DNA of 32,000 nucleotides, taken from Candidatus Nanopusillus sp. (lineage in GTDB: Archaea; Nanobdellota; Nanobdellia; Nanobdellales; Nanobdellaceae). This document shows, piece after piece, positions 5,182 to 27,522 of this stretch; position 1 is the first letter of the stretch, and each line of letters opens with the position of its first letter. A program made the position numbers and the translations under genes. The notes under the pieces are model-generated. The model was not told the DNA's origin and ran no database searches. It saw only the letters and a program-made list of their open reading frames with translations. Location of the stretch: NCBI GenBank assembly GCA_028275775.1, contig JAPWTZ010000003.1, forward strand, positions 1 through 32,000, in the 5' to 3' direction.

Positions 5182-5715
5182 ATGAGAGTTCCAATTATGA
5201 TTGATTATGTAGAAATACCAAATGGTGTAAATGTATCAATAGAAGATGGAAGAATATATATAAGGGGACCTAAAGGAGAAAAATATAGAAATATAAATAA
5301 TAGAAATATTTTTGTTGAAATAAAAGAAAATAAAATAATATTTAAAGCATATTTTCCTTCAAAGAAAATAATTAGAGATATGAATACAATGATTGCACAT
5401 ATAAAAAATGATATTGAAGGTGTAACAAAAGGTTTTGTATATAAATTAAGGGCTGTCTCAATACATTTTCCATTAAAATTAAAATTACAAAATAATAAAT
5501 TAATAATTGAAAATTATATGGGTGGAAGGGATATAAAAGAAATAGAAATTCCTAAAGGAGTAAAGGCTACATTAAATGAAAATGAAATTACATTAGAAGG
5601 ACATGATATAGAATTATTGGGAAATTTAGCAGGATTGATAGAAAATTCAGTAAAGCCAAGGGAAAAGGATTTAAGAAAGTTCCAAGATGGAATTTATATT
5701 GTTCAAAAACCATGA
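5182..5715 (+). CDS. rpl6: 50S ribosomal protein L6
   Basis: VEIPNGVNVSIEDGRIYIRGPKGE...YKLRAVSIHFPLKL...KFQDGIYI. An alternative ATG lies at 5197. Confidence 0.9.
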   Translation: MRVPIMIDYVEIPNGVNVSIEDGRIYIRGPKGEKYRNINNRNIFVEIKENKIIFKAYFPSKKIIRDMNTMIAHIKNDIEGVTKGFVYKLRAVSIHFPLKLKLQNNKLIIENYMGGRDIKEIEIPKGVKATLNENEITLEGHDIELLGNLAGLIENSVKPREKDLRKFQDGIYIVQKP

Positions 5716-6089
5716 TGAATAAATTATTAAAATTAAGAAAAATAATTAAAAGAAAAAAACCAGATTATTTTAGATATCAGTGGTGGAAAGTAATAAAATT
5801 GAGGAATAAAAAAGAATCTTGGAGAAGACCAAGGGGTATACATAATAAGATAAGAAAAAAATTGAAAAGTAGAGTTTCTATGGTTGAAGTCGGATATGGT
5901 TCTCCAAGAGAAGTAAAAGGATTATTGCCAAATGGAAAGAAACCTGTATTAATACATAATGTAGAAGAATTGGAAAAAATAGATAAAGAAAAAGAATGTG
6001 CAATAATTGCTTCTAATGTTGGAAAAAGGAAAAGAGAACAAATAATAAATAGGGCAAAGGAATTAAATATTGAAATTTTTAATATCTAA
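5712..6089 (+). CDS. rpl32e: 50S ribosomal protein L32e
   Basis: KKPDYFRYQWWKVIKL...SWRRPRGIHNKIRKK...GYGSPREVKGLLPNG...IASNVGKRKR. ATGA overlap with rpl6. Confidence 0.9.
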   Translation: MMNKLLKLRKIIKRKKPDYFRYQWWKVIKLRNKKESWRRPRGIHNKIRKKLKSRVSMVEVGYGSPREVKGLLPNGKKPVLIHNVEELEKIDKEKECAIIASNVGKRKREQIINRAKELNIEIFNI

Positions 6090-6628
6090 TATTTATACAA
6101 TTTGAAATAATCTATTACAAAATTTTTTATTTTTTCAGAATCATTATATAAATCTCTTCCAGACATTTCTATTAATTTCTTTTTTCCCCTAACTTTTTCT
6201 AGATTAGATTTCATTAAACCTAATACTTTTGAAAACCCTAAACTCAATAAAATTTTTTCAGTTGTACTAGCTTTACTTATATCAAATTCTTTAAATTCTT
6301 CTACATTATGAGAACTTTCTATACTTACATCTAAATCACCAATGGATGTATTTATATTATAAGCATTAATTATTATTGTTAATTCAACTTTCCAATCAAT
6401 TTTTGGTTCTTCTTTCCAATAATTTTTATAAGCTTCCCATTTGGCTTCTACAAATAACAAACCTTCCGGAGTTAATCGATGAAAATAATATTTTTCATAT
6501 CTATCTTTCTTAAATATTCCTTCCCATTTTTCACCTTCAAGGAATTTTTTAAATTTTTCATAAAAATCCTGTGGAATAAATTTTATTTTTGATCTTACTC
6601 TTGTTTTATATATTGTTTCCCAGGTCAT
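6086..6628 (-). CDS. hypothetical protein, distant tandem paralog of 6625..7110
   Basis: 180-aa ORF. Its stop overlaps the rpl32e stop (CTAA at 6086-6089). No known family recognised. Confidence 0.5.
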   Translation of the reverse strand: MTWETIYKTRVRSKIKFIPQDFYEKFKKFLEGEKWEGIFKKDRYEKYYFHRLTPEGLLFVEAKWEAYKNYWKEEPKIDWKVELTIIINAYNINTSIGDLDVSIESSHNVEEFKEFDISKASTTEKILLSLGFSKVLGLMKSNLEKVRGKKKLIEMSGRDLYNDSEKIKNFVIDYFKLYKY

Positions 6629-7110
6629 AGTTTAAATGATGCTGTAAAGTCTTTTGCTAAATTTAGAAAATCATCTGCAATTTTTCCAACATTTTTCTTA
6701 TGATCCTTTAATTCGCTATCATATAAATACTTTTCAAATAATCCCCTAAGAAATATATTAAATGGTTTATCTCCAAAATATTTTTGATAATCTGTTATTA
6801 AATCTCCATTTATTTTTATATTTAGATTTTCTGCATATTGTTTCATATTATCCAATAATTTTAAACTATCTATTGTAATACTTATATCATAACTATATGT
6901 TACATAATCTGTTATTTTCTTCTCTGTATGCCATTCTAAATTTATAGATCTAGATCCATCATCTTTTACTTTTTCTTCATGTTTATTTTCAAAAAAGTCA
7001 AATCCCTTACTATCCCAAAATTCTTTCATTGATTTATAGAATTTTTGGAAGTCAATTAGTCCAGTATATGAGAATGTTTTACCATCAACAATCCTCTCCT
7101 TTGGTGGCAT
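6625..7110 (-). CDS. hypothetical protein, distant tandem paralog of 6086..6628
   Basis: 161-aa ORF. ATGA overlap with the downstream gene at 6625-6628. The order of weak motifs is shared with its neighbour. Confidence 0.5.
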   Translation of the reverse strand: MPPKERIVDGKTFSYTGLIDFQKFYKSMKEFWDSKGFDFFENKHEEKVKDDGSRSINLEWHTEKKITDYVTYSYDISITIDSLKLLDNMKQYAENLNIKINGDLITDYQKYFGDKPFNIFLRGLFEKYLYDSELKDHKKNVGKIADDFLNLAKDFTASFKL

Positions 7111-7154
7111 AATAAATAAAAAAACTTTAATAATTAAAAGTTAAACTTTCTATA

Positions 7155-7541
7155 ATGTATAGGATAATATCTTTTTTATATAGGTTAAGGGAGAAAAAGG
7201 ATTCTATTATAATTGTAGAAGGTAAGAGGGATAAGGAAGTATTAAAAGAATTTGGATTTAATAATGTATATACAATATATGAATTAAGAAAAGATGATGG
7301 AATATTTTTAAATTATAGAGAGGCAATTATATTAACAGATAATGATAATAAGGGAAGAATTTTATATAAATATGTAAGGAATTTATTAGAATCTGATGGA
7401 ATAATTGTAAATGATATTGAAAGGAGAAAATTCTTTAAATATTTTAGAGTAAGGGAAGTTGAAGATTTAAGAAAGCATATTGAGGAAATTAAGTTCTATA
7501 TTAATTATTTTGAGAATCCTGAGAAGATTTTATACTTTTAA
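7155..7541 (+). CDS. small Toprim-domain protein (RNase M5 / small primase-like family)
   Basis: Toprim signatures: IIIVEGKRDKEVL (conserved Glu) and AIILTDNDNKGR (DxD). 128 aa. Confidence 0.7.
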   Translation: MYRIISFLYRLREKKDSIIIVEGKRDKEVLKEFGFNNVYTIYELRKDDGIFLNYREAIILTDNDNKGRILYKYVRNLLESDGIIVNDIERRKFFKYFRVREVEDLRKHIEEIKFYINYFENPEKILYF

Positions 7542-8892
7542 TTTTTTTAATTGGATATGATAATGGATTTTTAATTAAAGAACAAATATTATCTGGAGTA
7601 CATACCCCAATATCTTTATAATATATCTCATTATCGCAATTTGGAGTTAGATATTTTTTATTATTTTTATATAATTTCTTATGCCATTCTAATTGATATT
7701 CTATATATCTATCCTTCAGTGGATCTTGTAAATTTTCATTCCATTCTTTTATATATCTTTCAATTTTATCCCAATCCCATCCAATATTTGCAAAGAAATT
7801 TATTAATATAAATAAAGATCTTTTTCTTCCATCATCCATTTCTTTATTATTTAATATGTTTTTTATACATGGTGGGAATAGATCTTCATTTATTTCTATT
7901 TTTCTCTTCTTTATTTCTTCTACATCTTTCTTTGTCTCTTCAATTCCTTCTTGATTTTTATAATTTTCTGCTAACTGACTAATTTTTACTGCTTCAAATT
8001 CATTTTTTATTTTCCATAATAATGAATCATTAATTAATTTCTTTAATTCCTTAGATTCTTTTCTTTCCAAATCTTCTGTTAAATATGGTATACCTTCATA
8101 TGAATAATTATTTATATTAGAATCTTCAGGATTTAATTTTTCTATATAATTTTCTTTTATTGGTATAGATAAATTTCCTGTTTTTTCATTTATTGAATAT
8201 AAACATCTAATTAAATGTCTTGATGATATTAATATTGTATCTATTTCAATTATATCATATGGATTGAATTTTTCTATATCATTTACCCCATAATTTTTTA
8301 ATTCCTCTTCACTAAATTTTAATAGTACTATTTTCTTTAATTTCTCTTCTATTTCTTTTGATATATATAATGCCAATATTCTTGCAAGATCTGGAAATAA
8401 TTTCCTTGTTTCTTCTTCTACAAGATTGTCCTTTTTATATATATTTATTGTTTCAGGAAATATTTCCCATGGAATTGCTATATGGAATCCTTTTCCCCCG
8501 GAATATTTTATATATATTGGTTTAATATTTTTTTCTTTTAAATAATCAAAGATAATTCTTGCAGTAACTTTTGATAAATCTAAAGATTTTGCATCAATAT
8601 CTATTATAAAATCCCATCCCAATCTATATTCATTTAAATCTTTCTTTGAAACTTTTTCACTTAATATATTTAAATCAATCCATCTTTCAATTGATATATG
8701 AAATGAAATAGCACCTTTTTTAATATAATTTATTATATCATCTTCTGTTTCTATTTTTGATGGTCTATGTCCAAAATTATTATTTGATAATAAATACCCA
8801 ACTTCTCTATTTTGTGAAATTTTTACCATATCTTCCAAAATCTCTTTATTATTTTGATAGAATTTAATTAAATTATTTAACATTATACTCAT
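7501..8892 (-). CDS. priS-priL: archaeo-eukaryotic DNA primase, single-chain fusion of the PriS catalytic domain and a PriL-like Fe-S C-terminal domain
   Basis: AEP motifs: DFIIDIDAK (DxD), YSGGKGFHIAIPW (SGxGxH) and RHLIRCLYSINEKTG. The C-terminal 120 aa carry PPCIKNIL...RKRSLFILINFF...TPNCDN...GVCTPDNIC, i.e. four Cys laid out as in the PriL-CTD. Confidence 0.8.
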   Translation of the reverse strand: MSIMLNNLIKFYQNNKEILEDMVKISQNREVGYLLSNNNFGHRPSKIETEDDIINYIKKGAISFHISIERWIDLNILSEKVSKKDLNEYRLGWDFIIDIDAKSLDLSKVTARIIFDYLKEKNIKPIYIKYSGGKGFHIAIPWEIFPETINIYKKDNLVEEETRKLFPDLARILALYISKEIEEKLKKIVLLKFSEEELKNYGVNDIEKFNPYDIIEIDTILISSRHLIRCLYSINEKTGNLSIPIKENYIEKLNPEDSNINNYSYEGIPYLTEDLERKESKELKKLINDSLLWKIKNEFEAVKISQLAENYKNQEGIEETKKDVEEIKKRKIEINEDLFPPCIKNILNNKEMDDGRKRSLFILINFFANIGWDWDKIERYIKEWNENLQDPLKDRYIEYQLEWHKKLYKNNKKYLTPNCDNEIYYKDIGVCTPDNICSLIKNPLSYPIKKIKSIKSSQDSQNN

Positions 8893-13317: not shown

Positions 13318-13827
13318 ATGGTATCTGTAAGAGATGTAAATGGTCAAATGCTTGTAGAAAGATTAGCTAAATATTTATTCGAAAATTATAAAGATATAAT
13401 AAAACCACCAAGTTGGGCATTTTTTATTAAAACAGGACCAGATAAAGAGAGAAATCCTGATTTTCCACCAGATGTAGATTATAATGGAGGACCTGGATGG
13501 TGGTATTATAGAGCAGCATCAATTTTAAGAAAAGTATATTTATATGGACCAATTGGTGTTTCTAGATTAAGAAGAAAATATTCTGGATTAAGAAAAAGGG
13601 GAATGGAACCTGGAAAAGTTGTAAAAGGATATGGAAAATTAATAAGGGAAATATTGCATCAATTGGAGAATGCAGGATTAGTTATGAAAGTAAATGAAGG
13701 AAAGAAAAAGGGAAGAATTGTAACAAATAGTGGAAGAAGTTTATTAGATAAATTAGCTAATGAAATATATAAAGAATTAAATAACGAAAATAAGAATTTA
13801 ATTGATTATATAAAATCTGTTTCATGA
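13318..13827 (+). CDS. rps19e: 30S ribosomal protein S19e
   Basis: PSWAFFIKTGPDKERNP...WWYYRAASILRKVYLYGPIGVSRLRRKY. The track start at 13309 is TTG; the first ATG is at 13318. Carries a short insertion (DFPPDVDYNGGPG) before the WWYYR motif. Confidence 0.9.
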   Translation: MVSVRDVNGQMLVERLAKYLFENYKDIIKPPSWAFFIKTGPDKERNPDFPPDVDYNGGPGWWYYRAASILRKVYLYGPIGVSRLRRKYSGLRKRGMEPGKVVKGYGKLIREILHQLENAGLVMKVNEGKKKGRIVTNSGRSLLDKLANEIYKELNNENKNLIDYIKSVS

Positions 13828-14294
13828 GAGGTATAAGTTTATGGATTGAATTTTTAATATATACAGCATTTGCCATCTCTATATTATCTTTTGTATTATA
13901 TTTTGTTCATTTAACAATTCAAAATCAGCAGGATGAATTAAACTTAAAATATATTGTAAAATTATTGACAAATTTAAATTATCAAATAGAGACAATCGGA
14001 TCTTGTTATTCATGTAATTATAAAGCTTATGATAATTTACCAACAAAAACAATTATATATATTTATCCAGGAGAAATAATGTGTATATATTATTCTACTA
14101 TAAATTATTCTTTACAAGTTCCTCCATATATAAATTTAAATATAACTCAATTATCTGCATATGATTATGAATATAATTTTACTGTTAATACAATTCCATT
14201 TAATATAATAAATGGTCCTAATCTTACAATTACAAATAATTTATGTCTATTGTTAAATAAAAACCAATCAGGTTTATATATTAGTTTATGTTAA
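13824..14294 (+). CDS. secreted/membrane protein with a prepilin-like (class III-like) N-terminus
   Basis: MRG|ISLWIEFLIYTAFAISILSFVLYF, then an N/Y/T-rich region with 5 N-x-S/T sequons and 5 Cys. ATGA overlap with the rps19e stop. Confidence 0.5.
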   Translation: MRGISLWIEFLIYTAFAISILSFVLYFVHLTIQNQQDELNLKYIVKLLTNLNYQIETIGSCYSCNYKAYDNLPTKTIIYIYPGEIMCIYYSTINYSLQVPPYINLNITQLSAYDYEYNFTVNTIPFNIINGPNLTITNNLCLLLNKNQSGLYISLC

Positions 14295-14731
14295 ATACAA
14301 AAGAAATTAATATAATAACTATTAGAATTATTTACATTATAGCAAAAACAAATCCAGTTTGGTGGACTATATAAAATAAAGTTTTCATTACAATATTTTA
14401 ATATGCTTTGATTTACAATAAAAAATCCTTTAAAATAATAACAACAATTTATATTATTCTCATTACATTCTTGAATTGATAAATTATATGAAGATATACA
14501 AATGAAAGAAAAATTATAATTAATTTCTTTTGTATAATTTTCAAAATATAATGTATAATTTGATATATAATTATATCCAAAATTTTGATATGTATATATT
14601 ATTTGGTCTTCAAAATTTTTTCCTATTAAATTTGGATTAATACTATTTATTGGGGAAAGATTGTAATATGTAATAAAAGATAAAATAATAATAATTGCAA
14701 TTGTTGCTAATAATATATATTGAGATTTCAT
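14291..14731 (-). CDS. secreted/membrane protein, N/Y/C-rich, N-terminal hydrophobic anchor
   Basis: MKS|QYILLATIAIIIILSFITYY, then a sequon- and Cys-rich region. ATGA overlap with the upstream gene at 14728-14731. Confidence 0.5.
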   Translation of the reverse strand: MKSQYILLATIAIIIILSFITYYNLSPINSINPNLIGKNFEDQIIYTYQNFGYNYISNYTLYFENYTKEINYNFSFICISSYNLSIQECNENNINCCYYFKGFFIVNQSILKYCNENFILYSPPNWICFCYNVNNSNSYYINFFCI

Positions 14732-15048
14732 CCAAATATAATTAATATATATGGATTAAAATAATTTTGCCCCGCATATAAATATTCAAATATTGGTTCA
14801 TAATTTTCTATATATGTAGAATTTACTTGTTTTCCAAAATAGCATATTGTAATATTATTATTCGTTAGATTTATTATTTCATATATATATAAATTATTGT
14901 TGCATGAAGAATTTAGATAAATTAAGTTATTTGGATCAAAAGTATAAATATTGTAATTGTTATATTTGCTATAATAAGTATATAAAAAGAAAAAGGTCAA
15001 TAATATTATTGAAAATGCTAATTCTACCAGTATTATCCAGCTTCTCAT
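14728..15048 (-). CDS. small secreted/membrane protein with a prepilin-like N-terminus
   Basis: MRS|WIILVELAFSIILLTFFFLY, then an N/Y-rich region with sequons. ATGA overlap at 15045-15048. Confidence 0.5.
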   Translation of the reverse strand: MRSWIILVELAFSIILLTFFFLYTYYSKYNNYNIYTFDPNNLIYLNSSCNNNLYIYEIINLTNNNITICYFGKQVNSTYIENYEPIFEYLYAGQNYFNPYILIIFG

Positions 15049-17264
15049 TTTATATATATTGTTAATTGATCTTTATATAATGTATTTACCATTGTTGTAT
15101 TTAAAACATATATATTAAAGTTTTCTGAATATGTATAATTATTTACAATATTTCCTTGATATATTGTTCCATTAAATATTGTTATGTTTAAATTATTAAA
15201 ATAAAAATATGCATTTTGATAATTTTCTGATAAATTAATTAAATTATTTAAATTTATTACATTTATTGGTTTAATATAATTTATCTCAATATATGGAATT
15301 TGAGTAGAAAATGCTAAATATAATGCGGTTTGTTTATCTAAATTTGGATTTGAATATAGATAGAAGTAATAATTTTGATAATTATAATTATTATTTAATG
15401 TTGCATTTAAGAAATAAAGATTATTATAATTATAGTTATTATATGAGGAAATATATGAAATATATATTGTTGGATTATAATTTGTATATAATATAGAATC
15501 TAAGTGTCCAGAACAAGTAATAGTCTCTATAAAAGTTTGTATATTATATTTATAATATTTTCTTAATATTATACCATTCTCATATTCATAATAAAAATAT
15601 CCATTATATAAATTGTTTAGGTCAAATATTTTATTATAAATATTAGTTGAGTCTAAAATAAAACCATAATAAGATTGCGAAGTATTCCAAAATATCATAT
15701 TATTTGAATTGTAGTATTTTTCTGTATTAAATATATACCAATAAGTATTAGAAAATATTATATCCTTTATAGATAGATTTGTAGAATTATATAGATATAA
15801 TAAGGCTAATGAGTCATTGTAAACATAGGGAGTTAAATTATAAGGCTCATATTGGGAAGTATAGAAAGAAAAACCAATAAATGTATATAAACTGCATATG
15901 TTTAAATAACTTGATGGAATAGAATAGTAGTTGTTACCATAATTATCTGTTAGATAAGAAAAGTATGCTAAATTCATACCATTATTATTATATATTGCAA
16001 AGTCATTATTATAATTCAATAGTGGAATTTCTCCACTACCTAAATCATTATATTGAGAAAAGTCATAAGTTAAATTCGGACCTATAATAAATTTATAATT
16101 ATTAGTTAAATTTGGTTGATAAATAATTTTTATATTTGGTATTACATTATATGGAATTATATTTATATAATATGCAATAATATTTTGACCATATATTTGT
16201 AAATTAGCGCTATTATCATTATTATAACAATAATAAACATATAAAGAATTTGGATTTCCAGAAGATGGTAGATTTATATTACAATTATCTCCTAATTGTA
16301 TATAAGCATTATAAAGACTACTATTTTTAATATTAAATAATATTAAATAATTGCCTTTAGGAATACTATTTTTATAAGTAATTTTAAAGTTATTATACTG
16401 TGTACTGTAAATATAATCTCCAGGATTCATATATATAATATTTATAGGGGTATTATTTATCCAATATTGACTAAACTGTTGATAATTTTGATAACTAAAA
16501 TTATCATATACCGGAAATATTTCTTTTCCATCAACTGAATAACTATTTGTTCCATTTATTGGAGAAATGTTTAATACTACATAACTATTTGGAGAAATAT
16601 TTAAATCAATCCAAATTCCATAAGCATTATTATTAAAACTATTACAATTTAAATTATTATTTAAATAACAAAAATAATAATTATTTCTATTTAAATCTTC
16701 TACAGATAGATTATAACCATTTTGTAACCAATAAAAAATATCGGTAGAAGTTATAAATACAGGATAATTAGTTAAAGGTTGATTTGAAGGATTTGAAACA
16801 TTTATTAAAACATATTGTGGTTGATTATTGTTTATATTAAAATTTAGAAAGTTTGCATAAAAAAATATTCCAACATTTGGATCTAAATATGTATTATTTG
16901 TATTATTTAATACTCCAGAATAATTTGTTAAAAAGGATATATTTAATGGATAATATATTGGAAATGATGTACAAAAATCATTATATGCATTTTCATAAAT
17001 TGAATTATTATATATTGGAGAATTTTGTAAACATTGATAATACATAGATAATGGTATTGAAACATTTAATGACAATAAATAATATTTAGTTTCAATTGAA
17101 TTTAATATATTGTTTATATAATCATTATAATAATTTATTTGATCATAATTATTGATATTGTTTATTATGTATCCTCTATACATTGCTAAATAAAATGTTA
17201 AAAATGAAATAAAAATTACTATTGCAATTATACCTTCTATTTCCTTTACTATCCCTCTAACCAT
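15045..17264 (-). CDS. large extracellular N/Y-rich protein with a prepilin-like N-terminus
   Basis: A 2.2-kb frame stays open in stop-rich AT DNA. The track start at 17306 is TTG; the first ATG at 17264 gives MVRG|IVKEIEGIIAIVIFISFLTF. I counted about 27 N-x-S/T sequons by hand, and there are very few Lys after the anchor. Confidence 0.6.
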   Translation of the reverse strand: MVRGIVKEIEGIIAIVIFISFLTFYLAMYRGYIINNINNYDQINYYNDYINNILNSIETKYYLLSLNVSIPLSMYYQCLQNSPIYNNSIYENAYNDFCTSFPIYYPLNISFLTNYSGVLNNTNNTYLDPNVGIFFYANFLNFNINNNQPQYVLINVSNPSNQPLTNYPVFITSTDIFYWLQNGYNLSVEDLNRNNYYFCYLNNNLNCNSFNNNAYGIWIDLNISPNSYVVLNISPINGTNSYSVDGKEIFPVYDNFSYQNYQQFSQYWINNTPINIIYMNPGDYIYSTQYNNFKITYKNSIPKGNYLILFNIKNSSLYNAYIQLGDNCNINLPSSGNPNSLYVYYCYNNDNSANLQIYGQNIIAYYINIIPYNVIPNIKIIYQPNLTNNYKFIIGPNLTYDFSQYNDLGSGEIPLLNYNNDFAIYNNNGMNLAYFSYLTDNYGNNYYSIPSSYLNICSLYTFIGFSFYTSQYEPYNLTPYVYNDSLALLYLYNSTNLSIKDIIFSNTYWYIFNTEKYYNSNNMIFWNTSQSYYGFILDSTNIYNKIFDLNNLYNGYFYYEYENGIILRKYYKYNIQTFIETITCSGHLDSILYTNYNPTIYISYISSYNNYNYNNLYFLNATLNNNYNYQNYYFYLYSNPNLDKQTALYLAFSTQIPYIEINYIKPINVINLNNLINLSENYQNAYFYFNNLNITIFNGTIYQGNIVNNYTYSENFNIYVLNTTMVNTLYKDQLTIYIK

Positions 17265-18547
17265 AATCTTTTTCTTATTAATGTAGGATCTGCACCTCCA
17301 TGCCAAGAAACCCTCGGTTTCATTTGAACAGGATATATTCTTTCAGATTTATCATCTAAAATTAAAGCAGCACCTTTTTTCTTTGGTAAATTTTCATTCA
17401 TATATATATCAATATCCTGTGCAGTAAAATTCTTCATTATTTCATTTAAAGATTTTAAATCTCTTTCTGCAGTTACTCTATGTGATATAACTATATCACT
17501 TTGGGTAATTACATCTGTATGCATTTTACCAGGTTGCTGTGTTGCCAATACTAATGTTATACCAGGTTGCCTTCCTTCTCTTATTATTTGTATTAAAGGT
17601 TCTGTTGCTGGTGTAATTGAATCATTTGGAATTGCCTCATGTGCTTCATCAATTGCAATCCATATTAATGGAAATTCTCTTGTACCCAATTCTTTTGAAA
17701 TATATATTTCTTCTAATTCTTCTACTTTTCTATATATTAATCTTTGATAAAATATTTTCTTAGATATTAATCCAATTACTAAATTTTTTATTGACCATCC
17801 CCCAGTTATTGCAGTATATAAAGATATATCTAATATATTTATATAACCTGGCTTTGTTAAATTTCTTATACTTTCAGCTTTTTCAGAAAATAATCCCCAG
17901 CTATCTGCATTTTCAAAATATGTAGTTATAGCATTTTTCATATTACTATCTATATCTAATTTTTCAGTATAATTTATTATATCCTGTATAGAATATCCAT
18001 TATTGTTTTCCTTCATTCTTTTTATAATTTTTTGTATATATAATGCAATATTTGATGTTGGATCTAAATTAAATGTTAAAACCCATTCAATTCCTGATAG
18101 ATCTGATGGATTTAATTGAAAAACATCATCTATAGGAATATTTATTTTTCTATATTCATCTAATAAACCTTTGGGAACCAATATTCTACAGTTTTTTATT
18201 GATTTTGGTTTTAAACCCCATTTTTCTAATAATTCAGCATCTCTATAATTTGGAAATTTCATTGTCCAAAATATTCCCATTGTATCAAATATTAATCCTG
18301 AGAAATTATTTAATAAATCTTTTTCAAGATCAGATAGACTTTCAAATATTGAAGCTAATGTATAACTTTTTCCTTGTCCCCTTTTTCCAGCAATTAATAT
18401 TAAATGTGGAAGATTTACATCTAAATAAACTGTATTTGCTAAAGACAAAGCATTTTCCATTTTTATATATTCTTTACCTATGAAAATTGATCCTTTCAAT
18501 CCATATTTTTCTAAATCATCTAATGATCTTCCTACAATAATATCCAT
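17249..18547 (-). CDS. HerA/FtsK-superfamily P-loop ATPase (DUF87/COG0433-like)
   Basis: VYLDVNLPHLILIAGKRGQGKSYT (Walker A), PLIWIAIDEAHEAIP (Walker B), GRQPGITLVLATQQPGKM and IVISHRV. 432 aa. The 3' end overlaps the next gene by 16 nt. Confidence 0.8.
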   Translation of the reverse strand: MDIIVGRSLDDLEKYGLKGSIFIGKEYIKMENALSLANTVYLDVNLPHLILIAGKRGQGKSYTLASIFESLSDLEKDLLNNFSGLIFDTMGIFWTMKFPNYRDAELLEKWGLKPKSIKNCRILVPKGLLDEYRKINIPIDDVFQLNPSDLSGIEWVLTFNLDPTSNIALYIQKIIKRMKENNNGYSIQDIINYTEKLDIDSNMKNAITTYFENADSWGLFSEKAESIRNLTKPGYINILDISLYTAITGGWSIKNLVIGLISKKIFYQRLIYRKVEELEEIYISKELGTREFPLIWIAIDEAHEAIPNDSITPATEPLIQIIREGRQPGITLVLATQQPGKMHTDVITQSDIVISHRVTAERDLKSLNEIMKNFTAQDIDIYMNENLPKKKGAALILDDKSERIYPVQMKPRVSWHGGADPTLIRKRLWLEG

Positions 18548-18584: not shown

Positions 18585-19193
18585 ATGCAAAGTAAATATA
18601 CAGCTTTATTGATTGGTAGATTTCAGCCATTTCATATTGGTCATTTGAATAGTTTATGGAAAATTCTAGAAAAATATGATGTAAATAATATAAAAATTAT
18701 TGTTGCTAGAAAAGAAAATTCTAGATTAGATAGTAATCCGATACCATTAGATGTTACAATAGATAATATATCAAAAGGTTTAGAGATGATATATGGAGAA
18801 AAATATAATATTGAAGTATATGGTATTTACTATAAAAATTTAATTGATCTCTTTGTTAAAATTGGAAATATTCTTAATTATAATAAATGGAAAACAGATT
18901 ACATAATAAATACTGGTGATATAAAACGTTTAATAATGTTTAAAATAGTTAGAATATTTTATAAAATAATTTATGATATAGACCTTAAGGTTATTTATAG
19001 TCCTAGAATTATTAGTGGAAAAGAAATTAGGGAAAATCTAAGAAATGGAAATATAAAATATGTTAAATATATAGTTTATCCAGAAAAAGAAATAATAAAT
19101 TATATTATGCACCCGCCGGGATTTGAACCCGGGTCGCGGGCTTGGAAGGCCCGCATCCTGCCACTAGACGACGGGTGCAATATATATTCTTAA
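18585..19193 (+). CDS. nadM: nicotinamide-nucleotide adenylyltransferase, archaeal type
   Basis: ALLIGRFQPFHIGHL motif and ISGKEIRENLRNG. The last ~28 codons (HPPGFEPGSRAWKARILPLDDGCNIYS) are simply the antisense of tRNA-Gly. Confidence 0.8.
   Translation: MQSKYTALLIGRFQPFHIGHLNSLWKILEKYDVNNIKIIVARKENSRLDSNPIPLDVTIDNISKGLEMIYGEKYNIEVYGIYYKNLIDLFVKIGNILNYNKWKTDYIINTGDIKRLIMFKIVRIFYKIIYDIDLKVIYSPRIISGKEIRENLRNGNIKYVKYIVYPEKEIINYIMHPPGFEPGSRAWKARILPLDDGCNIYS
19108..19178 (-). tRNA. tRNA-Gly (anticodon UCC)
   Basis: Minus strand: GCACCCG-UC-GUCU-AGUGGCA-GGAU-G-CGGGC-CUUCCAA-GCCCG-CGAC-CCGGG-UUCAAAU-CCCGG-CGGGUGC-A. Full 71-nt cloverleaf, no intron, CCA not encoded. Confidence 0.93.
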
Positions 19194-19317: not shown

Positions 19318-20034
19318 ATGGACAATATTCCAAAACACGTAGCAGTTATACCAGATGGTAATAGAAGGTATGCTAAAAAATATAATTTATCTATCTATGA
19401 AGCATACAAAATTGGTTCTGATAAAGCTGTGGAATTTTTAAATTGGTGTATAGAATTTGGTATAAAAGTTGCTACAATTTTTATTATTTCATATGACAAT
19501 TTTATAAAAAGACCAAAAGAAGAAGTAGATCCTATACTAGAATTATTAAGAGAAAAATTAAAAATGGTAAGAGAAGATAAAAGGATTATTGAAAATGAAG
19601 TAAAAATAAAGATAATTGGTAGGACATATCTTTTACCAGATGATATTCAGAAGGAAATAAAATTAGTAGAAGATCTGACAAAAAATAATTCTAAATATTA
19701 TTTAAATTTGGCAGTTATATATGGAAGCAGGCAAGAAATAATTGATGGTATTAAAAAATTATTTGAAGATTTTAAAAAAGGTATTATAGATATTAATAAT
19801 TTGGATGAATCATTATTTATGAAATATTTATATTTTGATGATGAAATTCCATATCCAGAGCCAGATTTAATAATAAGAACAAGTGGAGAACATAGAATAA
19901 GTAATTATCTATTATATCAGGCTGCATATTCTGAATTATATTTTATAGATAAATATTGGCCAGAGATTACAAAAGAAGATTTTATAAACGCAATTGAATG
20001 GTATAAGAAAAGGGAAAGAAGATTTGGAAAATAA
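19318..20034 (+). CDS. uppS: undecaprenyl/polyprenyl diphosphate synthase (cis-prenyltransferase)
   Basis: HVAVIPDGNRRYAKK and IIRTSGEHRISNYLLYQAAYSELYF...WPE. Confidence 0.92.
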   Translation: MDNIPKHVAVIPDGNRRYAKKYNLSIYEAYKIGSDKAVEFLNWCIEFGIKVATIFIISYDNFIKRPKEEVDPILELLREKLKMVREDKRIIENEVKIKIIGRTYLLPDDIQKEIKLVEDLTKNNSKYYLNLAVIYGSRQEIIDGIKKLFEDFKKGIIDINNLDESLFMKYLYFDDEIPYPEPDLIIRTSGEHRISNYLLYQAAYSELYFIDKYWPEITKEDFINAIEWYKKRERRFGK

Positions 20035-20106
20035 TGGACCCGCCGGGATTTGAACCCGGGATCTCCGGCTAGCCAGGCCGACATCCTACGACTAGACTAC
20101 GGGCCC
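20035..20106 (-). tRNA. tRNA-Ala (anticodon GGC)
   Basis: Minus strand: GGGCCCG-UA-GUCU-AGUCGUA-GGAU-G-UCGGC-CUGGCUA-GCCGG-AGAUC-CCGGG-UUCAAAU-CCCGG-CGGGUCC-A. Has the G3:U70 alanine identity pair. 72 nt, CCA not encoded. Abuts the uppS stop codon. Confidence 0.9.
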
Positions 20107-20131
20107 AATAAATTTTAAATATCCTTTAAAT

Positions 20132-21382
20132 TTATATATAATATGCCGGAATAGTATATACTTTTGTATTATAAATATCTCTCACTTCAAATTCATCTAA
20201 AGTTATTATTAATCCTTTCTCTGGTTTATATTTTTTAATAAATGTGTAAAAGCCCCTATTAATTCTTCTAGATGTTTTTACTTCTATTGGAATAATTTTA
20301 TCTCCTTTTGTTAAAATAAAATCTATTTCTGCCTTTCCAGTTGTCCTCCAATAATTTATTTTCCAATCTGAGAAATTTTTTAATAATTCAATATAAACAA
20401 AGTTTTCTAATAATTGTCCTTTATCTGTTCTTTTATCATATTCTAAAAAATTATCTATAACAGAATTTCTCAAACCCAGGTCTATAAAATATATTTTTTT
20501 AGCTTTTTTTAATTCTGTTACAATATTTTTATGAAAAGGTTCAATTAGATCTATTATATATGTGTGTTTTAATATTGTTATATAATTTTCAACTTTTCTA
20601 TAACTTATTTTTAATTCTTTAGAAACTGAAGAAATATCTAAAATATTTCCTATTATAAAGGATAAATATCTAGTAAGATCTATAAATTTTGAAGAATCAT
20701 AAATATGGAAAAAATTTACAATATCCTTTTCAATATATAAATTATATAGATTTTTTAATAATATTTTCTTTTCTTCAAAATCTTTTGCTATAGAAACTTC
20801 TGGATATCCTCCATATATTAAATATTCTTTTAAATATTTTACTATTTCCTCATTAAAAGATGGTTTTTTAATTTCATCATCTTTTTCTAAAAATTCCCTT
20901 AAAGATTCCCTTTTTTCTTTTACTAAATTTGCAAGTCCTTTATCTTTTGATAATAAAAATTCATAGAAATTAAAAGGATATAAAGTAAATAATATTAATC
21001 TTCCAACCAAATCTGGAAGTATTTTTGTATTAATTTCTAATGTTGAAGATCCAGATATAAAAATTTTAATATCGTCAAAATTATCATATATTATTTTCAA
21101 TATTTTTCCACCATCCTTTAATTTTTGAATTTCATCTAAAAAAAGAAATAATTTCTTTTCATCTTTATATCTTTTAATAAAATCTATATAATTTTCTTCA
21201 AAATTTTTTCTATATTCATCTATATACATATCAATATATACTTTATTTTCATTGATTTTTTCATAAATATTTTTTAATAATGTAGTTTTTCCAGCCTGTC
21301 TTGGTCCTCTTATTCCTATTATTTCCTTTCTTCCGATAAACTTATTTATTTTTTCTTCTATTTCTCTATTTATATATGTCAT
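20132..21382 (-). CDS. AAA+ superfamily ATPase, COG1373 type (AAA_14 + DUF4143-like)
   Basis: IIGIRGPRQAGKTTLLK (Walker A) and LFLFLDEIQ (Walker B). The C-terminal half is typical of the archaeal COG1373 family. Confidence 0.8.
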   Translation of the reverse strand: MTYINREIEEKINKFIGRKEIIGIRGPRQAGKTTLLKNIYEKINENKVYIDMYIDEYRKNFEENYIDFIKRYKDEKKLFLFLDEIQKLKDGGKILKIIYDNFDDIKIFISGSSTLEINTKILPDLVGRLILFTLYPFNFYEFLLSKDKGLANLVKEKRESLREFLEKDDEIKKPSFNEEIVKYLKEYLIYGGYPEVSIAKDFEEKKILLKNLYNLYIEKDIVNFFHIYDSSKFIDLTRYLSFIIGNILDISSVSKELKISYRKVENYITILKHTYIIDLIEPFHKNIVTELKKAKKIYFIDLGLRNSVIDNFLEYDKRTDKGQLLENFVYIELLKNFSDWKINYWRTTGKAEIDFILTKGDKIIPIEVKTSRRINRGFYTFIKKYKPEKGLIITLDEFEVRDIYNTKVYTIPAYYI

Positions 21383-21431
21383 AATAACTCTATTATTTTT
21401 TCAATCCTTATAAAAATAACTCTATTATTTT
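21383..21431. repeat. two copies of a 17-nt direct repeat in a divergent promoter region
   Basis: AATAACTCTATTATTTT occurs at 21383-21399 and again at 21415-21431 (32-nt period), between the COG1373 ATPase start (21382) and the AOR start (21487). Confidence 0.6.
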
Positions 21432-21486
21432 ATCAAATATAGTTAGAATATTAAATATTTTTTAAGTATGAAAATAATTATAATTT

Positions 21487-23391
21487 ATGGTTTATGGATA
21501 TATGGGAAAGATTTTAAGAGTAAATTTAACTGAAGAGAAAATTTCTATAGAATCTTTACCTTCAGAAGATATATTGAGAAAATGGTTGGGAGGAAGGGGA
21601 ATTGGTACATATTATATAATAAAGGAAGTACCACCCAATGTAGATCCTTTAAGTCCCGAAAACAAATTAATTATTGCTACAGGACCTGTAACTGGAATTA
21701 CTGGAATTCCAACTGCTGGAAGATGGTCTATTGTTACGAAATCTCCAATAACAAATACAATTTATGAAGGAAATGCTGGAGGAAAATTTAGTGCAGAATT
21801 AAAATTTTCAGGTTTTGATTTTATAATAATTGAAGGAAAAGCAAATAGACCTGTATATTTATGGATATATAATGGAAAAGCAGAAATAAGAGATGCAAAA
21901 CATTTATGGGGAAAGACAGTTTATCAAACTGTGGATTTAATTAGGGAAGAACTATCATCAATTGTAGGAAAGGATGATGCAAAAAATATTAAAGTAATTA
22001 GTATAGGACCTGCAGGTGAAAAATTAGTTAAAATAGCTGCTGTAATAGAAGATAAAGGAAAAGGTGCTGTTGGAAGAGGTGGAATTGCAGCTGTATTTGG
22101 AAGTAAGAATTTAAAGGCAATTGCTGTGAGAGGAAATTTAAAACCTCAAATTGCAAATCAAGAAAAATTCAGAGAAGTTATTTTGAAATCTTCACAATTT
22201 GTAAGAAATTCTACTATTACATCTATAATATTACCAAAATATGGGACTGCAGGATTCTTAGCAAAAGCCTTAGGAGAAAAAGGTATGATACCTGTAAAAA
22301 ATTATCAAACAAATGTATTTTCAGATTTTAATAAATTATCTGGAGAAACTATTGTAAAAGAATATTTAGATCAAGAAAAAACAAGAGAATCAATATGTTG
22401 GGGATGTCCAATAGGATGTAAAAAATATACAAGGGTTGATAAACCATTATTTAGTACAGAGGGAGAAGGTCCAGAATATATGGGTGTATGGGGATTTGGA
22501 TATAATCTAAATAATGATAATTTACCTTCTGTTTTAAGGGCTTACCATTTATGTAATGAATTAGGTTTAGATATTGTTGGAACAGGTCATGTTATTGGAA
22601 CATTTATTGAATTTGTTGAAAAAGGAAAAATACCAAATGAAAAATTGGAAGGATTAAAAGTTAATTGGGGAGATCCAGAATTAATTATTGAATTAATATA
22701 TAGAATTGCAAATAGAATTGGAATTGGGGATGATTTATCAGAAGGTACAAAGGAATTTGCAAAGAAATATAATGCAGAAGAATATGCAATGATAAATAAA
22801 AGGGGAATGCCTTTGTTTGGTTTTGATCCAAGAGGAGCACAGGGTTATGGATTATGGTATGCAACAAGTAATACAGGTGATTATGATCAATTAGGATTAT
22901 TTAAAGAAGTTACAGAACCAACTTATTTAGGAAATAATAATATTAATAGATTTGAAACAAAAGGAAAAGGAGAATTAATAAAAAAAGAACAAGATTTGGC
23001 TGCAGCAATTGATAGTATGATTGTATGTAGATTTTCAAGGTATGCATTAAATGAAGAAATATATGCTGAACAATTATCTTCAGTTACTGGATGGGATATT
23101 AATCCTCAAGAATTATTAAAAATTGGAGAAAGAATATGGAATGCAGAAAGGGTATATAATATTTTAGTATTTGGAGATAATTCAGAATATGATAATTTAC
23201 CAAAAAGATTCTTAGAAGAACCATTTAAAGAGGGACCTTCTGCAGGTTATGTAGTAAAAATTAATGAAATGTTACCTGAATATTATAAAGCGAGAGGTTG
23301 GATAAATGGAAGACCTACAAGAGAGAAGTTAGAAGAATTAGATTTAAAATGGTTAGCAGATATTTTAGAGGAAAAGCATTTATTACTTTAA
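21487..23391 (+). CDS. aor: aldehyde:ferredoxin oxidoreductase family (tungstopterin enzyme)
   Basis: The N-terminal domain begins GKILRVNLTEEKISIE. 4Fe-4S ligands are ICWGCPIGC plus the downstream MIVCRFS. 634 aa. Confidence 0.9.
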   Translation: MVYGYMGKILRVNLTEEKISIESLPSEDILRKWLGGRGIGTYYIIKEVPPNVDPLSPENKLIIATGPVTGITGIPTAGRWSIVTKSPITNTIYEGNAGGKFSAELKFSGFDFIIIEGKANRPVYLWIYNGKAEIRDAKHLWGKTVYQTVDLIREELSSIVGKDDAKNIKVISIGPAGEKLVKIAAVIEDKGKGAVGRGGIAAVFGSKNLKAIAVRGNLKPQIANQEKFREVILKSSQFVRNSTITSIILPKYGTAGFLAKALGEKGMIPVKNYQTNVFSDFNKLSGETIVKEYLDQEKTRESICWGCPIGCKKYTRVDKPLFSTEGEGPEYMGVWGFGYNLNNDNLPSVLRAYHLCNELGLDIVGTGHVIGTFIEFVEKGKIPNEKLEGLKVNWGDPELIIELIYRIANRIGIGDDLSEGTKEFAKKYNAEEYAMINKRGMPLFGFDPRGAQGYGLWYATSNTGDYDQLGLFKEVTEPTYLGNNNINRFETKGKGELIKKEQDLAAAIDSMIVCRFSRYALNEEIYAEQLSSVTGWDINPQELLKIGERIWNAERVYNILVFGDNSEYDNLPKRFLEEPFKEGPSAGYVVKINEMLPEYYKARGWINGRPTREKLEELDLKWLADILEEKHLLL

Positions 23392-27228: not shown

Positions 27229-27522
27229 TTATTTTAATGGATAAATATAATTTGTTCCATTTATATTACATATAATATCTGTTGAATTATAATAGCAATT
27301 TACATATGTTTGATTTATGCTATTTAAATAACATTGAGAAAAATTATAAACTTGTCCTAAAAATGCATAATTTATCATATTCTGTGCGCAATCTGCATAT
27401 GCTATAATATTTGAATCCATATGAATAATATTTGTCGATAAATATTGAGTGGTAGCTACTATTGATGCTGCTATAATTAATGCTGGTAGTATAAACATTG
27501 GTAAGGTAGATTCTAACTTCAT
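27229..27522 (-). CDS. small secreted/membrane Cys- and sequon-rich protein
   Basis: Hydrophobic N-terminus LPMFILPALIIAASIVATT, then an N/Y/C-rich region (NFS, NQT, NST, NGT sequons; 5 Cys). Composition resembles the 14.3-17.3 kb proteins. Confidence 0.45.
   Translation of the reverse strand: MKLESTLPMFILPALIIAASIVATTQYLSTNIIHMDSNIIAYADCAQNMINYAFLGQVYNFSQCYLNSINQTYVNCYYNSTDIICNINGTNYIYPLK

Follow-up and report, generated by a model that had tools for sequence, protein, structure and literature searches.

A 32,000-nt stretch of Candidatus Nanopusillus sp. contig JAPWTZ010000003.1 (GenBank assembly GCA_028275775.1, positions 1 to 32,000), referred to at its full length as the window, has a GC content of ~23% and comes from a Nanopusillus-type nanoarchaeon. 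Between 13.8 and 18.6 kb, it carries a gene for a small HerA-clade ATPase, here called mini-HerA, and four genes for apparently secreted proteins with pilin-like N-termini (the partners). The original prediction, made from the sequence alone, had seen in these genes a candidate non-canonical surface or translocation module built around a HerA/FtsK-class ATPase. The analysis reported here indicates that the locus is most likely composite, consisting of a cassette of the type found with archaeal type IV filaments (TFF) and a separate HerA-clade ATPase. The genes are arranged as follows.

17249..18547, minus strand: mini-HerA ATPase, 432 aa; DUF87 and HerA_C domains and HerA fold; a HerA-clade P-loop protein
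15045..17264, minus strand: large surface protein, 739 aa, with its ATG at 17264; class III-like leader, N-terminal helix, predicted to be beta-rich; candidate pilus-associated adhesin
14728..15048, minus strand: pilin-like protein, 106 aa; N-terminal hydrophobic helix with an invariant Glu
14291..14731, minus strand: Cys-rich pilin-like protein, 146 aa; N-terminal hydrophobic helix and five invariant Cys residues
13824..14294, plus strand: pilin-like protein, 156 aa; convergent on the cluster, co-oriented and overlapping with the S19e gene

All five open reading frames (ORFs), with their coordinates and overlaps, were recovered by ORF calling and by direct reading of the sequence. The ATPase and 739-aa genes overlap by 16 nt, ATGA overlaps of 4 nt join the 739-aa gene to the 106-aa gene (15045–15048) and the 106-aa gene to the 146-aa gene (14728–14731), and the 146-aa and 156-aa genes share a TTAA stop/stop overlap at 14291–14294. 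Genes identical to the small ones of the window were called on the near-identical Joint Genome Institute (JGI) contig Ga0392389_00203 (locus L088). The minus-strand genes had been proposed to form one operon because of these overlaps. The overlaps are real and the gene order is conserved, but of the 25 same-strand neighbour pairs in the window 12 overlap, and 4-nt overlaps also occur between several convergent pairs. Gene overlaps are thus the norm in this genome, and overlap alone is weak evidence for an operon. The 156-aa gene, introduced as a fifth gene next to the cluster, does converge on it and does share the TTAA overlap. However, this gene has the same orientation as the gene for ribosomal protein S19e and overlaps its stop in an ATGA at 13824–13827; hence, it belongs to the S19e transcription unit and not to that of the ATPase. 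The gene order of the whole region, including ribosomal genes and the genes for SepF and glutamyl-tRNA synthetase (GluRS), is kept across the Nanopusillaceae. No multi-pass membrane protein is encoded between 13.8 and 18.6 kb.

The ATPase matches Pfam DUF87, the HerA central domain, with an E-value of 2.4e-11 (44.6 bits; cut-off 23.2) and HerA_C with an E-value of 3.4e-5 (23.1 bits; cut-off 22). It is 96% identical to the corresponding protein of the metagenome-assembled genome 'Candidatus Nanopusillus sp. RSNS12' and 82% identical to that of the cultivated Nanobdella aerobiophila. A Walker A motif (GKRGQGKS), a Walker B motif (IDEAHE, within IWIAIDEAH) and a REGRQPG...ATQQPG segment are present, and GKRGQGKS, IDEAHE and REGRQPG are invariant in an alignment of 78 sequences that has 54 invariant columns in all. 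The AlphaFold2 (AF2) model of the ATPase (78 sequences) has a mean predicted local distance difference test score (pLDDT) of 91.5 and a predicted template modelling score (pTM) of 0.91. In a Foldseek comparison of this model with the Protein Data Bank (PDB), the top 50 matches were all of the HerA family (3.8e-20 to 1.5e-12), and none of them was VirB4, VirD4, FtsK or TrwB. The best were NurA-partnered archaeal HerA proteins, 9x1m (T. kodakarensis HerA-NurA, 3.8e-20) followed by 4d2i (2.4e-19). PDB matches found by sequence were likewise all HerA-type, with the anti-phage HerA 8xau (4e-10) as the best. The placement in the HerA/FtsK superfamily, made originally from the motifs, is therefore confirmed, and by profile and fold the ATPase is a member of the HerA clade of this superfamily.

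The ATPase is neither a repair-HerA equivalog nor a protein of the CedB/CedD/VirB4 type. It missed the cut-offs of the NCBIfam repair-HerA equivalogs (NF040937, 29.6 bits versus 800; NF040819, 29.1 bits versus 970), and its weak NCBIfam matches to EssC (3.7e-5) and CedD (0.008; 14.8 bits versus 600) lie far below cut-off. Walker A is preceded by ~45 residues, which are modelled as a short helix and a beta-hairpin (strands E20-30 and E33-43), and the HAS-barrel appears in the model to be rudimentary at best. A Kyte-Doolittle scan found no transmembrane (TM) segment. The best PADLOC match was mad8 (5.2e-21, residues 36-424, i.e. full length); a defence-island reading based on mad8 and anti-phage HerA was dropped on genomic context. 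An inovirus-like Zot/pI assembly module was also rejected, as the Zot matches span ~60 residues near Walker B and the gene is core and DPANN-wide.

A search for homologues of the ATPase returned 4321 proteins, typically of ~437 aa and with 43–50% identity across Woese-, Pace- and Nanoarchaeota, and 578 stretches encoding a relative were present in the genome collection. The neighbourhood was surveyed in 88 loci, in which ORFs were called and the flanks inspected. Genes for N-anchored partners follow the ATPase gene in Nanoarchaeales loci only. In ~75 loci with a 43–50%-identical ATPase, pilin-like neighbours are absent and the flanks are housekeeping or clade-specific, and in locus L092 (59% identity) a radical-SAM gene stands in the place of the large protein. 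The NurA and Rad50 Pfam domains were detected neither in 12 annotated loci nor in the 25 commonest of the 76 families into which 135 downstream neighbours fall; upstream neighbours and the rest of the genomes were not searched. Two short Metallophos proteins near the ATPase, in L089 and L092, are too small for Mre11. An adjacent nurA, named in the original prediction as a mark of a repair HerA, was not seen beside the ATPase in any locus examined. The literature searched contained no paper joining DUF87 with DPANN and no described function for this ATPase family, and the ATPase and partner genes are not discussed in the text of the Nanobdella surface paper.

Other genes recur near mini-HerA when its loci are grouped into 20 identity clusters. 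A gene for an HtpX-type M48 peptidase is found in eight clusters at varied positions, and its stop overlaps the ATPase start in L012/L089 and L091. A divergent gene for a PpiD/SurA-like membrane-anchored parvulin peptidyl-prolyl isomerase (PPIase) lies 0.2–0.7 kb upstream of mini-HerA in 6 of the 20. Genes for a signal peptide peptidase, tyrosyl-tRNA synthetase (TyrRS) and Trm5 are further recurrent neighbours. HtpX, the PPIase and the signal peptide peptidase suggest an envelope-proteostasis theme, which is only a lead as Trm5 is equally persistent. In nine Woesearchaeota-type loci, a ~100-aa soluble protein (MAFSKSF...ALFEKRASH.IYWKE...) is encoded on the same strand directly 3' of mini-HerA. 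It is found within three genes of mini-HerA in 14 loci in total and has no Pfam match, and in L005 its place is taken by another protein, of 99 aa, that has a C..C...C.H pattern. In those lineages, the ~100-aa protein could serve the ATPase as a small partner. A conserved DPANN-wide partner was considered and rejected, since HtpX, the PpiD-like PPIase, Trm5, TyrRS and the ~100-aa protein show clade-specific synteny only.

In all four partners, the Kyte-Doolittle scan shows one hydrophobic segment, which begins within the first few residues. They contain 3.2–4.8 N-x-S/T sequons per 100 aa as compared with a window mean of 0.4, 1.9–3.4% Lys as compared with 11.6%, and 8–9% charged residues as compared with 29%. 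Sequon density and Lys content are 3.7 per 100 aa and 2.4% in the large protein and 3.8 per 100 aa and 1.9% in the 106-aa protein; the 146-aa protein has a sequon density of 4.8 per 100 aa and contains 5.5% Cys. The sequon-rich, Lys-poor composition, strongly set off from that of the window, agrees with the extracellular look noted originally, and the sequences support extracellular, glycoprotein-like proteins with pilin-type N-termini.

The partners are restricted to Nanoarchaeales and diverge much faster than the ATPase. Identity to the large protein and to the ATPase is, respectively, 82% and 96% in L008, 53% and 81% in Nanobdella, and 36% and 67% in NZ13-N (Nanoclepta), and the small proteins are likewise fast-diverging relative to the ATPase. 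The homologue search with the large protein returned only 59 sequences, all from Nanopusillaceae, and diverged homologues are encoded directly after the ATPase in L091, L012/L089 and L093. The cleavage site first proposed for the large protein, after MVRG, is replaced by a better candidate, MVRGIVKEIEG|IIAIVIFISFL. The E-G-[IV]-I tetrad at residues 10-13 occurs in 30 of 33 distinct large-protein N-termini, even in those without R-G at positions 3-4. In the AF2 model a helix at residues 2-56 (pLDDT 48-77 there) is followed by beta-rich domains. A DUF2341 assignment, suggested by eye from the motif I.ISN...L.NYPV...FCY...IW, was rejected (hhalign E 0.09, probability <1%). In another nanoarchaeal locus, L094 of the Nanopusillaceae (5677-7517, minus strand), a DUF2341 protein of 461 aa and a 152-aa protein are encoded just upstream of the mini-HerA locus.

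In each small protein, the N-terminal helix is the most conserved part. The N-terminus of the 156-aa protein, M[RK]G|[IV]SLW[IV]EFLIYT, is its best-conserved stretch, with S5, L6, W7, E9 and F10-T14 invariant. Its family has 13 cluster representatives of 146–163 aa, and a 156-aa representative (P0180) is 90% identical. The 106-aa protein starts with MRS|WIILVELAFSIILL, in which E9 is invariant in the orthologues including a 92-aa protein of L091, and its position after the large protein is kept in Nanopusillaceae and L091. The 146-aa protein starts with MKS|QYILLATIAIII, and Q4, A9 and five Cys residues are invariant. A [KR][GAS] pair is present within the first 8 residues in 11 of 14 distinct N-termini of the 156-aa family, 5 of 7 of the 146-aa family and 6 of 7 of the 106-aa family, mostly as [KR][GS] at positions 2-3. 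The three small proteins concatenated as one query gave no match at E <= 0.01, and the word-index search seemingly fails on such low-complexity, N/Y/I-rich sequences.

Relatives of the window provide the connection with TFF machinery. In L091 (GCA_054017035.1), whose ATPase is 68% identical, the gene order is M48 peptidase, mini-HerA, homologues of 541, 92 and 130 aa, two T2SSF genes (convergent) and a T2SSE gene (divergent). The 541-aa protein is a homologue of the large protein. The 92-aa protein, with an N-terminal LEAAIAI... and a C-terminal PALILIG, is a homologue of the 106-aa protein, and the 130-aa protein (MKSQ..., with a C-terminal Cys pattern) is a homologue of the 146-aa protein that occupies the same position and directly abuts the T2SSF genes. 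There are no other pilin candidates in the L091 TFF cluster. The conservation of gene order in related genomes, proposed originally as a check, is thus observed for the ATPase and its partners. In every Nanoarchaeales locus seen, the ATPase stop overlaps the start of the large-protein gene, and this occurs in three unrelated flanking contexts, those of the Nanopusillaceae, L091/L012 and L093.

A metagenome scan with the L091 T2SSE yielded 35 loci. In the longer ones, the genes stand in the order T2SSE, KaiC-like ATPase, two T2SSF proteins and a large N-anchored, sequon-rich protein of 539–1829 aa. One of the large proteins of these sister clusters has beta-helix and CBM96 domains, and another has Big_1. 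In L101, several small N-anchored proteins are encoded 3' of the large one, two of them with weak, sub-cut-off matches to DUF7266 and DUF7288. The cluster pilin of L101 begins with MYGNKG|ISFTLEAII and has in common with the MRG|ISLWIEF of the window's 156-aa protein the pattern G|IS...E. The KaiC-like ATPase of the sister clusters L101 and L102 is absent from the L091 TFF cluster. In L104 (GC 26%, Nanopusillaceae-like gene content), the T2SSE gene (Pfam 1.6e-33) is preceded by that for a 96-aa MRG|QLLLEQ... protein; hence, pilins with three-residue leaders are found beside a TFF ATPase in this lineage.

A further arrangement is found in L089 (12499-13952) and L090 (4305-6964), whose ATPase is 69% identical. 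The ATPase-adhesin pair is followed there by genes for an NTPase_1 protein and a small ferredoxin, then by those for a PF01917 archaellin-type protein of 146 aa and a second N-anchored protein of 146 aa (both ArlF/ArlG-like by eye), and lastly by a gene for a 594-aa protein that is DUF2341/LamG-like by eye. An ArlF/ArlG identity of the window's own small proteins was considered and rejected: Pfam gave no match for them, PF01917 matched only the 146-aa protein of L089/L090, and tblastn with the L089/L090 PF01917 protein found nothing in the window. Nanoarchaeota from Yellowstone National Park have been described as having two type IV pilus (T4P) systems and an archaellum, with four FlaJ/TadC homologues, and their N-anchored 'hypothetical external' proteins show a high density of non-synonymous single-nucleotide polymorphisms (PMC6142677). 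Archaeal TFF clusters made up of two platform proteins, an ATPase, pilins and an adhesin are classed as system 1/subsystem 4A (Makarova et al. 2016; Sivabalasarma & Albers 2026), a layout that agrees with the one seen in these relatives, and subsystem 4A is reported from some Nanoarchaeota.

The partners probably belong to the pilin/adhesin sets of TFF systems, judging by their sequences and their neighbours in relatives. In the interpretation that we favour, and for which we see roughly an even chance, the four form an adhesin-plus-pilin cassette of a canonical archaeal TFF system, and the neighbouring mini-HerA is not their assembly motor. TFF ATPases act via a T2SSF platform. On the cytoplasmic side, the partners expose only 2-3 residues, or ~11 at most, and no polytopic membrane protein is encoded in the locus; a soluble HerA hexamer thus could not act on them directly. 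From these two points, a detached TFF cassette is the most economical reading.

The cassette would comprise 2-3 small pilin-like subunits and one large, fast-evolving adhesin, beta-rich and heavily N-glycosylated, that starts with a class III-type leader and has a pilin-type N-terminal helix. Sec would insert the partners into the membrane, where the N-terminal helix would hold them, with or without removal of the very short leader. A T2SSE (PilB/FlaI-family) ATPase, working through the T2SSF platform, would then extract and assemble them. This TFF core would be encoded elsewhere in Nanopusillaceae genomes, and in a relative it adjoins the cassette. The product is likely to be a short pilus or a tip complex whose displayed adhesin would make contact with the host cell. 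The mini-HerA would be a hexameric translocase-type ATPase, conserved in the sampled Nano-, Woese- and Pacearchaeota mostly without such neighbours. Its adjacency to the adhesin gene would be an ancestral feature of Nanoarchaeales and may reflect mere co-expression in a compacted genome. A canonical PilB/PilC locus elsewhere, which the original prediction had named as grounds for refuting its own module, goes a long way towards accounting for the partners, as indicated by L091, the sister TFF clusters, L104 and the published T4P systems (PMC6142677).

Several observations weigh against this interpretation. The TFF core of this genome was not among the scanned ORFs of the window and is deduced from relatives and the literature. 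As originally noted for PilC/FlaJ and prepilin peptidase, no T2SSE, T2SSF or A24 peptidase domain (PibD/FlaK/EppA) was found in the scanned window ORFs or in the annotation of the near-identical L088, several small ORFs at the ends being unscanned. An identifiable prepilin peptidase has also been reported absent in two nanoarchaea (PMC4858521). None of the partners has a match in Pfam, NCBIfam, PADLOC or PHROG, and hence none to a pilin family; nothing was found for orthologues of the 156-aa protein in Pfam even at E values up to 10. Homology among the four was not detected by hhalign (probability <=10%), and their paralogy was rejected on this ground. Confidence in the large-protein model is low (mean pLDDT 61.6), and Foldseek gave no meaningful fold match for it in the PDB. 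Class III signals had been proposed for all four partners, and were judged here by the tetrad pattern over distinct N-termini. The FlaFind tetrad is reportedly [KRDE][GA][ALIFQMVED][ILMVTAS], as attributed to Szabo and colleagues in 2007. The N-terminal helices and the tetrad of the large protein are in line with the proposal, but the strict tetrad is present in only 6 of 14 distinct N-termini of the 156-aa family, 0 of 7 of the 146-aa family and 1 of 7 of the 106-aa family. Finally, the pairing of the ATPase with the large protein in three contexts exceeds what genome compaction alone would lead one to expect and leaves room for a functional link.

That pairing is the main argument for regarding mini-HerA as a genuine accessory of the Nanoarchaeales TFF/adhesin system, either as a cytoplasmic hexamer that docks at the T2SSE/T2SSF base, where the sister clusters have their KaiC/ArlH-like ATPase, or as a nucleic-acid translocase working on material that enters at the pilus-mediated host contact. 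The operon of L091, moreover, abuts a TFF core without the KaiC-like ATPase of its sisters L101 and L102, and in the Ced/Ups system of Sulfolobales HerA-clade ATPases (CedB/CedD) cooperate with T4P contact (PMC11868833). Envelope-proteostasis neighbours in other DPANN (HtpX M48, the PpiD/SurA-like PPIase and signal peptide peptidase) are consistent with such a role. Nevertheless, the ~75 loci with 43–50%-identical ATPases have no TFF or pilin neighbour, T2SS genes lie within 8 kb of the ATPase in 4 of ~85 loci (~5%), which is of the same order as a rough, uncomputed chance estimate, and Trm5, surely unrelated, persists beside the ATPase as much as HtpX does. The ATPase has no TM segment or VirB4-like N-domain and no channel protein beside it, and overlapping genes are usual in this genome, the S19e/156-aa pair included. 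We regard an accessory role as rather unlikely, although it is the chief rival to the favoured interpretation. A more specific idea, suggested by analogy and in our view improbable, is that the Nanoarchaeales mini-HerA might be a contact-dependent translocase: an adhesin-tipped filament would bind the host, and the hexamer would import or process host nucleic acid or protein cargo, as a stripped-down functional analogue of Ups pili and Ced in Sulfolobales. This would suit a symbiont that reportedly lacks nearly all biosynthesis, a statement attributed to Wurch and colleagues in 2016. More broadly, the DPANN-wide family could be an unrecognised envelope-associated motor, as its HtpX, PpiD-like PPIase and signal peptide peptidase neighbours would suggest.

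A different view would take the partners as N-anchored or Sec-secreted surface glycoproteins (S-layer-associated or for host recognition) that are not assembled by a TFF, the ATPase as a housekeeping HerA paralogue, e.g. in repair or segregation, and the cluster as a chance by-product of genome compaction. The lack of pilin family matches, the scarcity of the strict tetrad in the small proteins, the D or N found at position -1 in some 156-aa orthologues and the failure to find TFF genes in the scanned window ORFs would fit with this, and the order of the whole region is conserved in Nanopusillaceae in any case. For the ATPase, the nearest structures by Foldseek are NurA-partnered HerA proteins, and the Nanobdella orthologue carries the NCBI name 'DNA double-strand break repair helicase HerA'. 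However, the homologous cassette adjoins T2SSF and T2SSE in L091, the sister TFF clusters have an identical cassette layout and the shared G|IS...E N-terminus, a PF01917 archaellin-type protein is encoded beside the ATPase-adhesin pair in L089, and conservation is higher in the N-terminal helices than in the ectodomains, which is not what cleaved Sec signals would show. A repair role is opposed by equivalog scores of ~29 bits versus 800-970 and by the neighbourhoods, in which nurA, mre11 and rad50 were not seen. This view, too, seems to us unlikely. The original proposal of a self-contained non-canonical machine, with the HerA-type ATPase itself as the motor that assembles or exports the four prepilin-like proteins, could draw on the tight overlaps, on the conserved order of the ATPase, large, 106-aa and 146-aa genes, on the existence of export motors in the FtsK/HerA superfamily (VirB4, EssC) and on the weak EssC and CedD matches. 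Against it stand the canonical TFF core, which adjoins the operon in L091 and is also found in the family, the sister TFF clusters, the absence of a polytopic membrane protein together with the few cytoplasmic residues of the partners, fold matches that are all to HerA DNA translocases and not to VirB4, VirD4 or FtsK, and the distribution of the ATPase, which is far wider than that of the partners and for the most part free of them. The proposal is thus not upheld, and we consider it very improbable.

As the evidence stands, the locus is best read as a TFF accessory cassette of the ordinary kind, next to an ATPase that is uncharacterised but conventional-looking. In view of the conserved pairing of ATPase and adhesin, accessory coupling is possible. 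The lineage-specific, fast-evolving cassette is a good candidate for host contact. It speaks to the question of how nanoarchaeal ectosymbionts recognise and attach to their hosts, and the fast-evolving adhesin with its small pilin-like partners, conserved in the cultivated Nanobdella, Nanopusillus and Nanoclepta, offers a testable candidate for a host-contact structure. The mini-HerA, with its conserved position in the sampled Nanoarchaeota and thousands of homologues, is a sizeable piece of DPANN 'dark matter', and coupling of this ATPase to pilus or envelope biogenesis would, if true, be new biology.

Some other features of the window were noted. A 97-aa ORF at 27229-27522 on the minus strand (MKLESTLPMFILPALIIAASIV...), adjoining the GatD gene, resembles the four partners in its unusual composition: its sequon density is 4.1 per 100 aa, and Lys and Cys make up 2.1% and 4.1%. 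In Nanobdella (L001) and NZ13-N (L003), the equivalent position holds a gene for a protein of 97-98 aa without a Pfam match, and the product of the window ORF may be a further small secreted or pilin-like protein. Two tRNA genes are present.

19107-19179, minus strand: tRNA-Gly(TCC)
20034-20107, minus strand: tRNA-Ala(GGC)

The mechanically called ORF 18585-19193 (CTP_transf_like, probably a nucleotidyltransferase) runs through tRNA-Gly in antisense; hence, its C-terminal ...PPGFEPGSRAWKARILPLDD is almost certainly not protein and the real gene ends earlier. No gene was called in the counterpart of this stretch in L088 (7948-8717). At 20132-23391, between a GTPase gene and mini-HerA, the window encodes a 634-aa aldehyde:ferredoxin oxidoreductase (AFOR_N/AFOR_C) and a 416-aa ATPase of the AAA_14/DUF4143 type. 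Nanobdella (L001) and NZ13-N (L003) lack this pair at the corresponding place. The pair is an insertion specific to the lineage; the region is syntenic apart from it, and the genome is very reduced. A fused PriS-PriL primase of 463 aa (DNA_primase_S and DNA_primase_lrg) is encoded at 7501-8892 on the minus strand, and the same fusion occurs in L093 and L094.

Among known systems, the archaeal HerA-NurA proteins (4d2i, 9x1m) are the closest to the window ATPase in structure (E 1e-19 to 1e-20, TM-score 0.6-0.68), and share with it a RecA-like additional strand, catalytic E (ASCE) core, a helical insertion, and HerA-type Walker A/B and arginine-finger motifs. The window ATPase is, however, shorter (432 aa versus ~500-580 aa) and only ~19% identical, has only ~45 residues before Walker A, apparently in place of a full HAS-barrel, and in no locus examined does an ATPase of its type have nurA, mre11 or rad50 beside it. 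Defence-type HerA proteins (mad8, and anti-phage HerA that acts with Sir2 or DUF4297) resemble it in sequence, as seen from the full-length mad8 match and from 8xau. In contrast to these, mini-HerA is a single-copy gene whose synteny is conserved, both in a symbiont genome of 0.6 Mb and across thousands of DPANN genomes, and no Sir2, DUF4297, methyltransferase or nuclease partner adjoins it.

The Ced/Ted systems of Crenarchaeota, which function with Ups pili, are similar in that a HerA-clade ATPase is found near pilin-like proteins in an organism living in contact with others (PMC11868833). The window ATPase differs in lacking TM helices and a VirB4-like N-domain, and in its CedD score of 14.8 bits versus 600. 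Unlike both Ced/Ted and type IV secretion systems, the window locus has no CedA/VirB6-like polytopic channel, and the partners have a single N-terminal helix instead of the two-helix hairpin of VirB2/CedA1. Archaeal TFF clusters (system 1/subsystem 4A) differ from the window locus as well: the Nanopusillaceae cassette is detached from the core and lies among ribosomal and housekeeping genes, the leaders of its small proteins have just 3 residues and no pilin Pfam match is obtained, and the window operon is headed by a HerA-clade ATPase gene, of which the two TFF surveys consulted make no mention. On the other hand, the TFF clusters have in common with it a large N-anchored glycoprotein and small proteins in which a short basic leader is followed by a small residue and ~20 hydrophobic residues. 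The N-terminus of a window small protein resembles that of the L101 cluster pilin, and the homologous cassette of L091 adjoins two T2SSF genes and a T2SSE gene.

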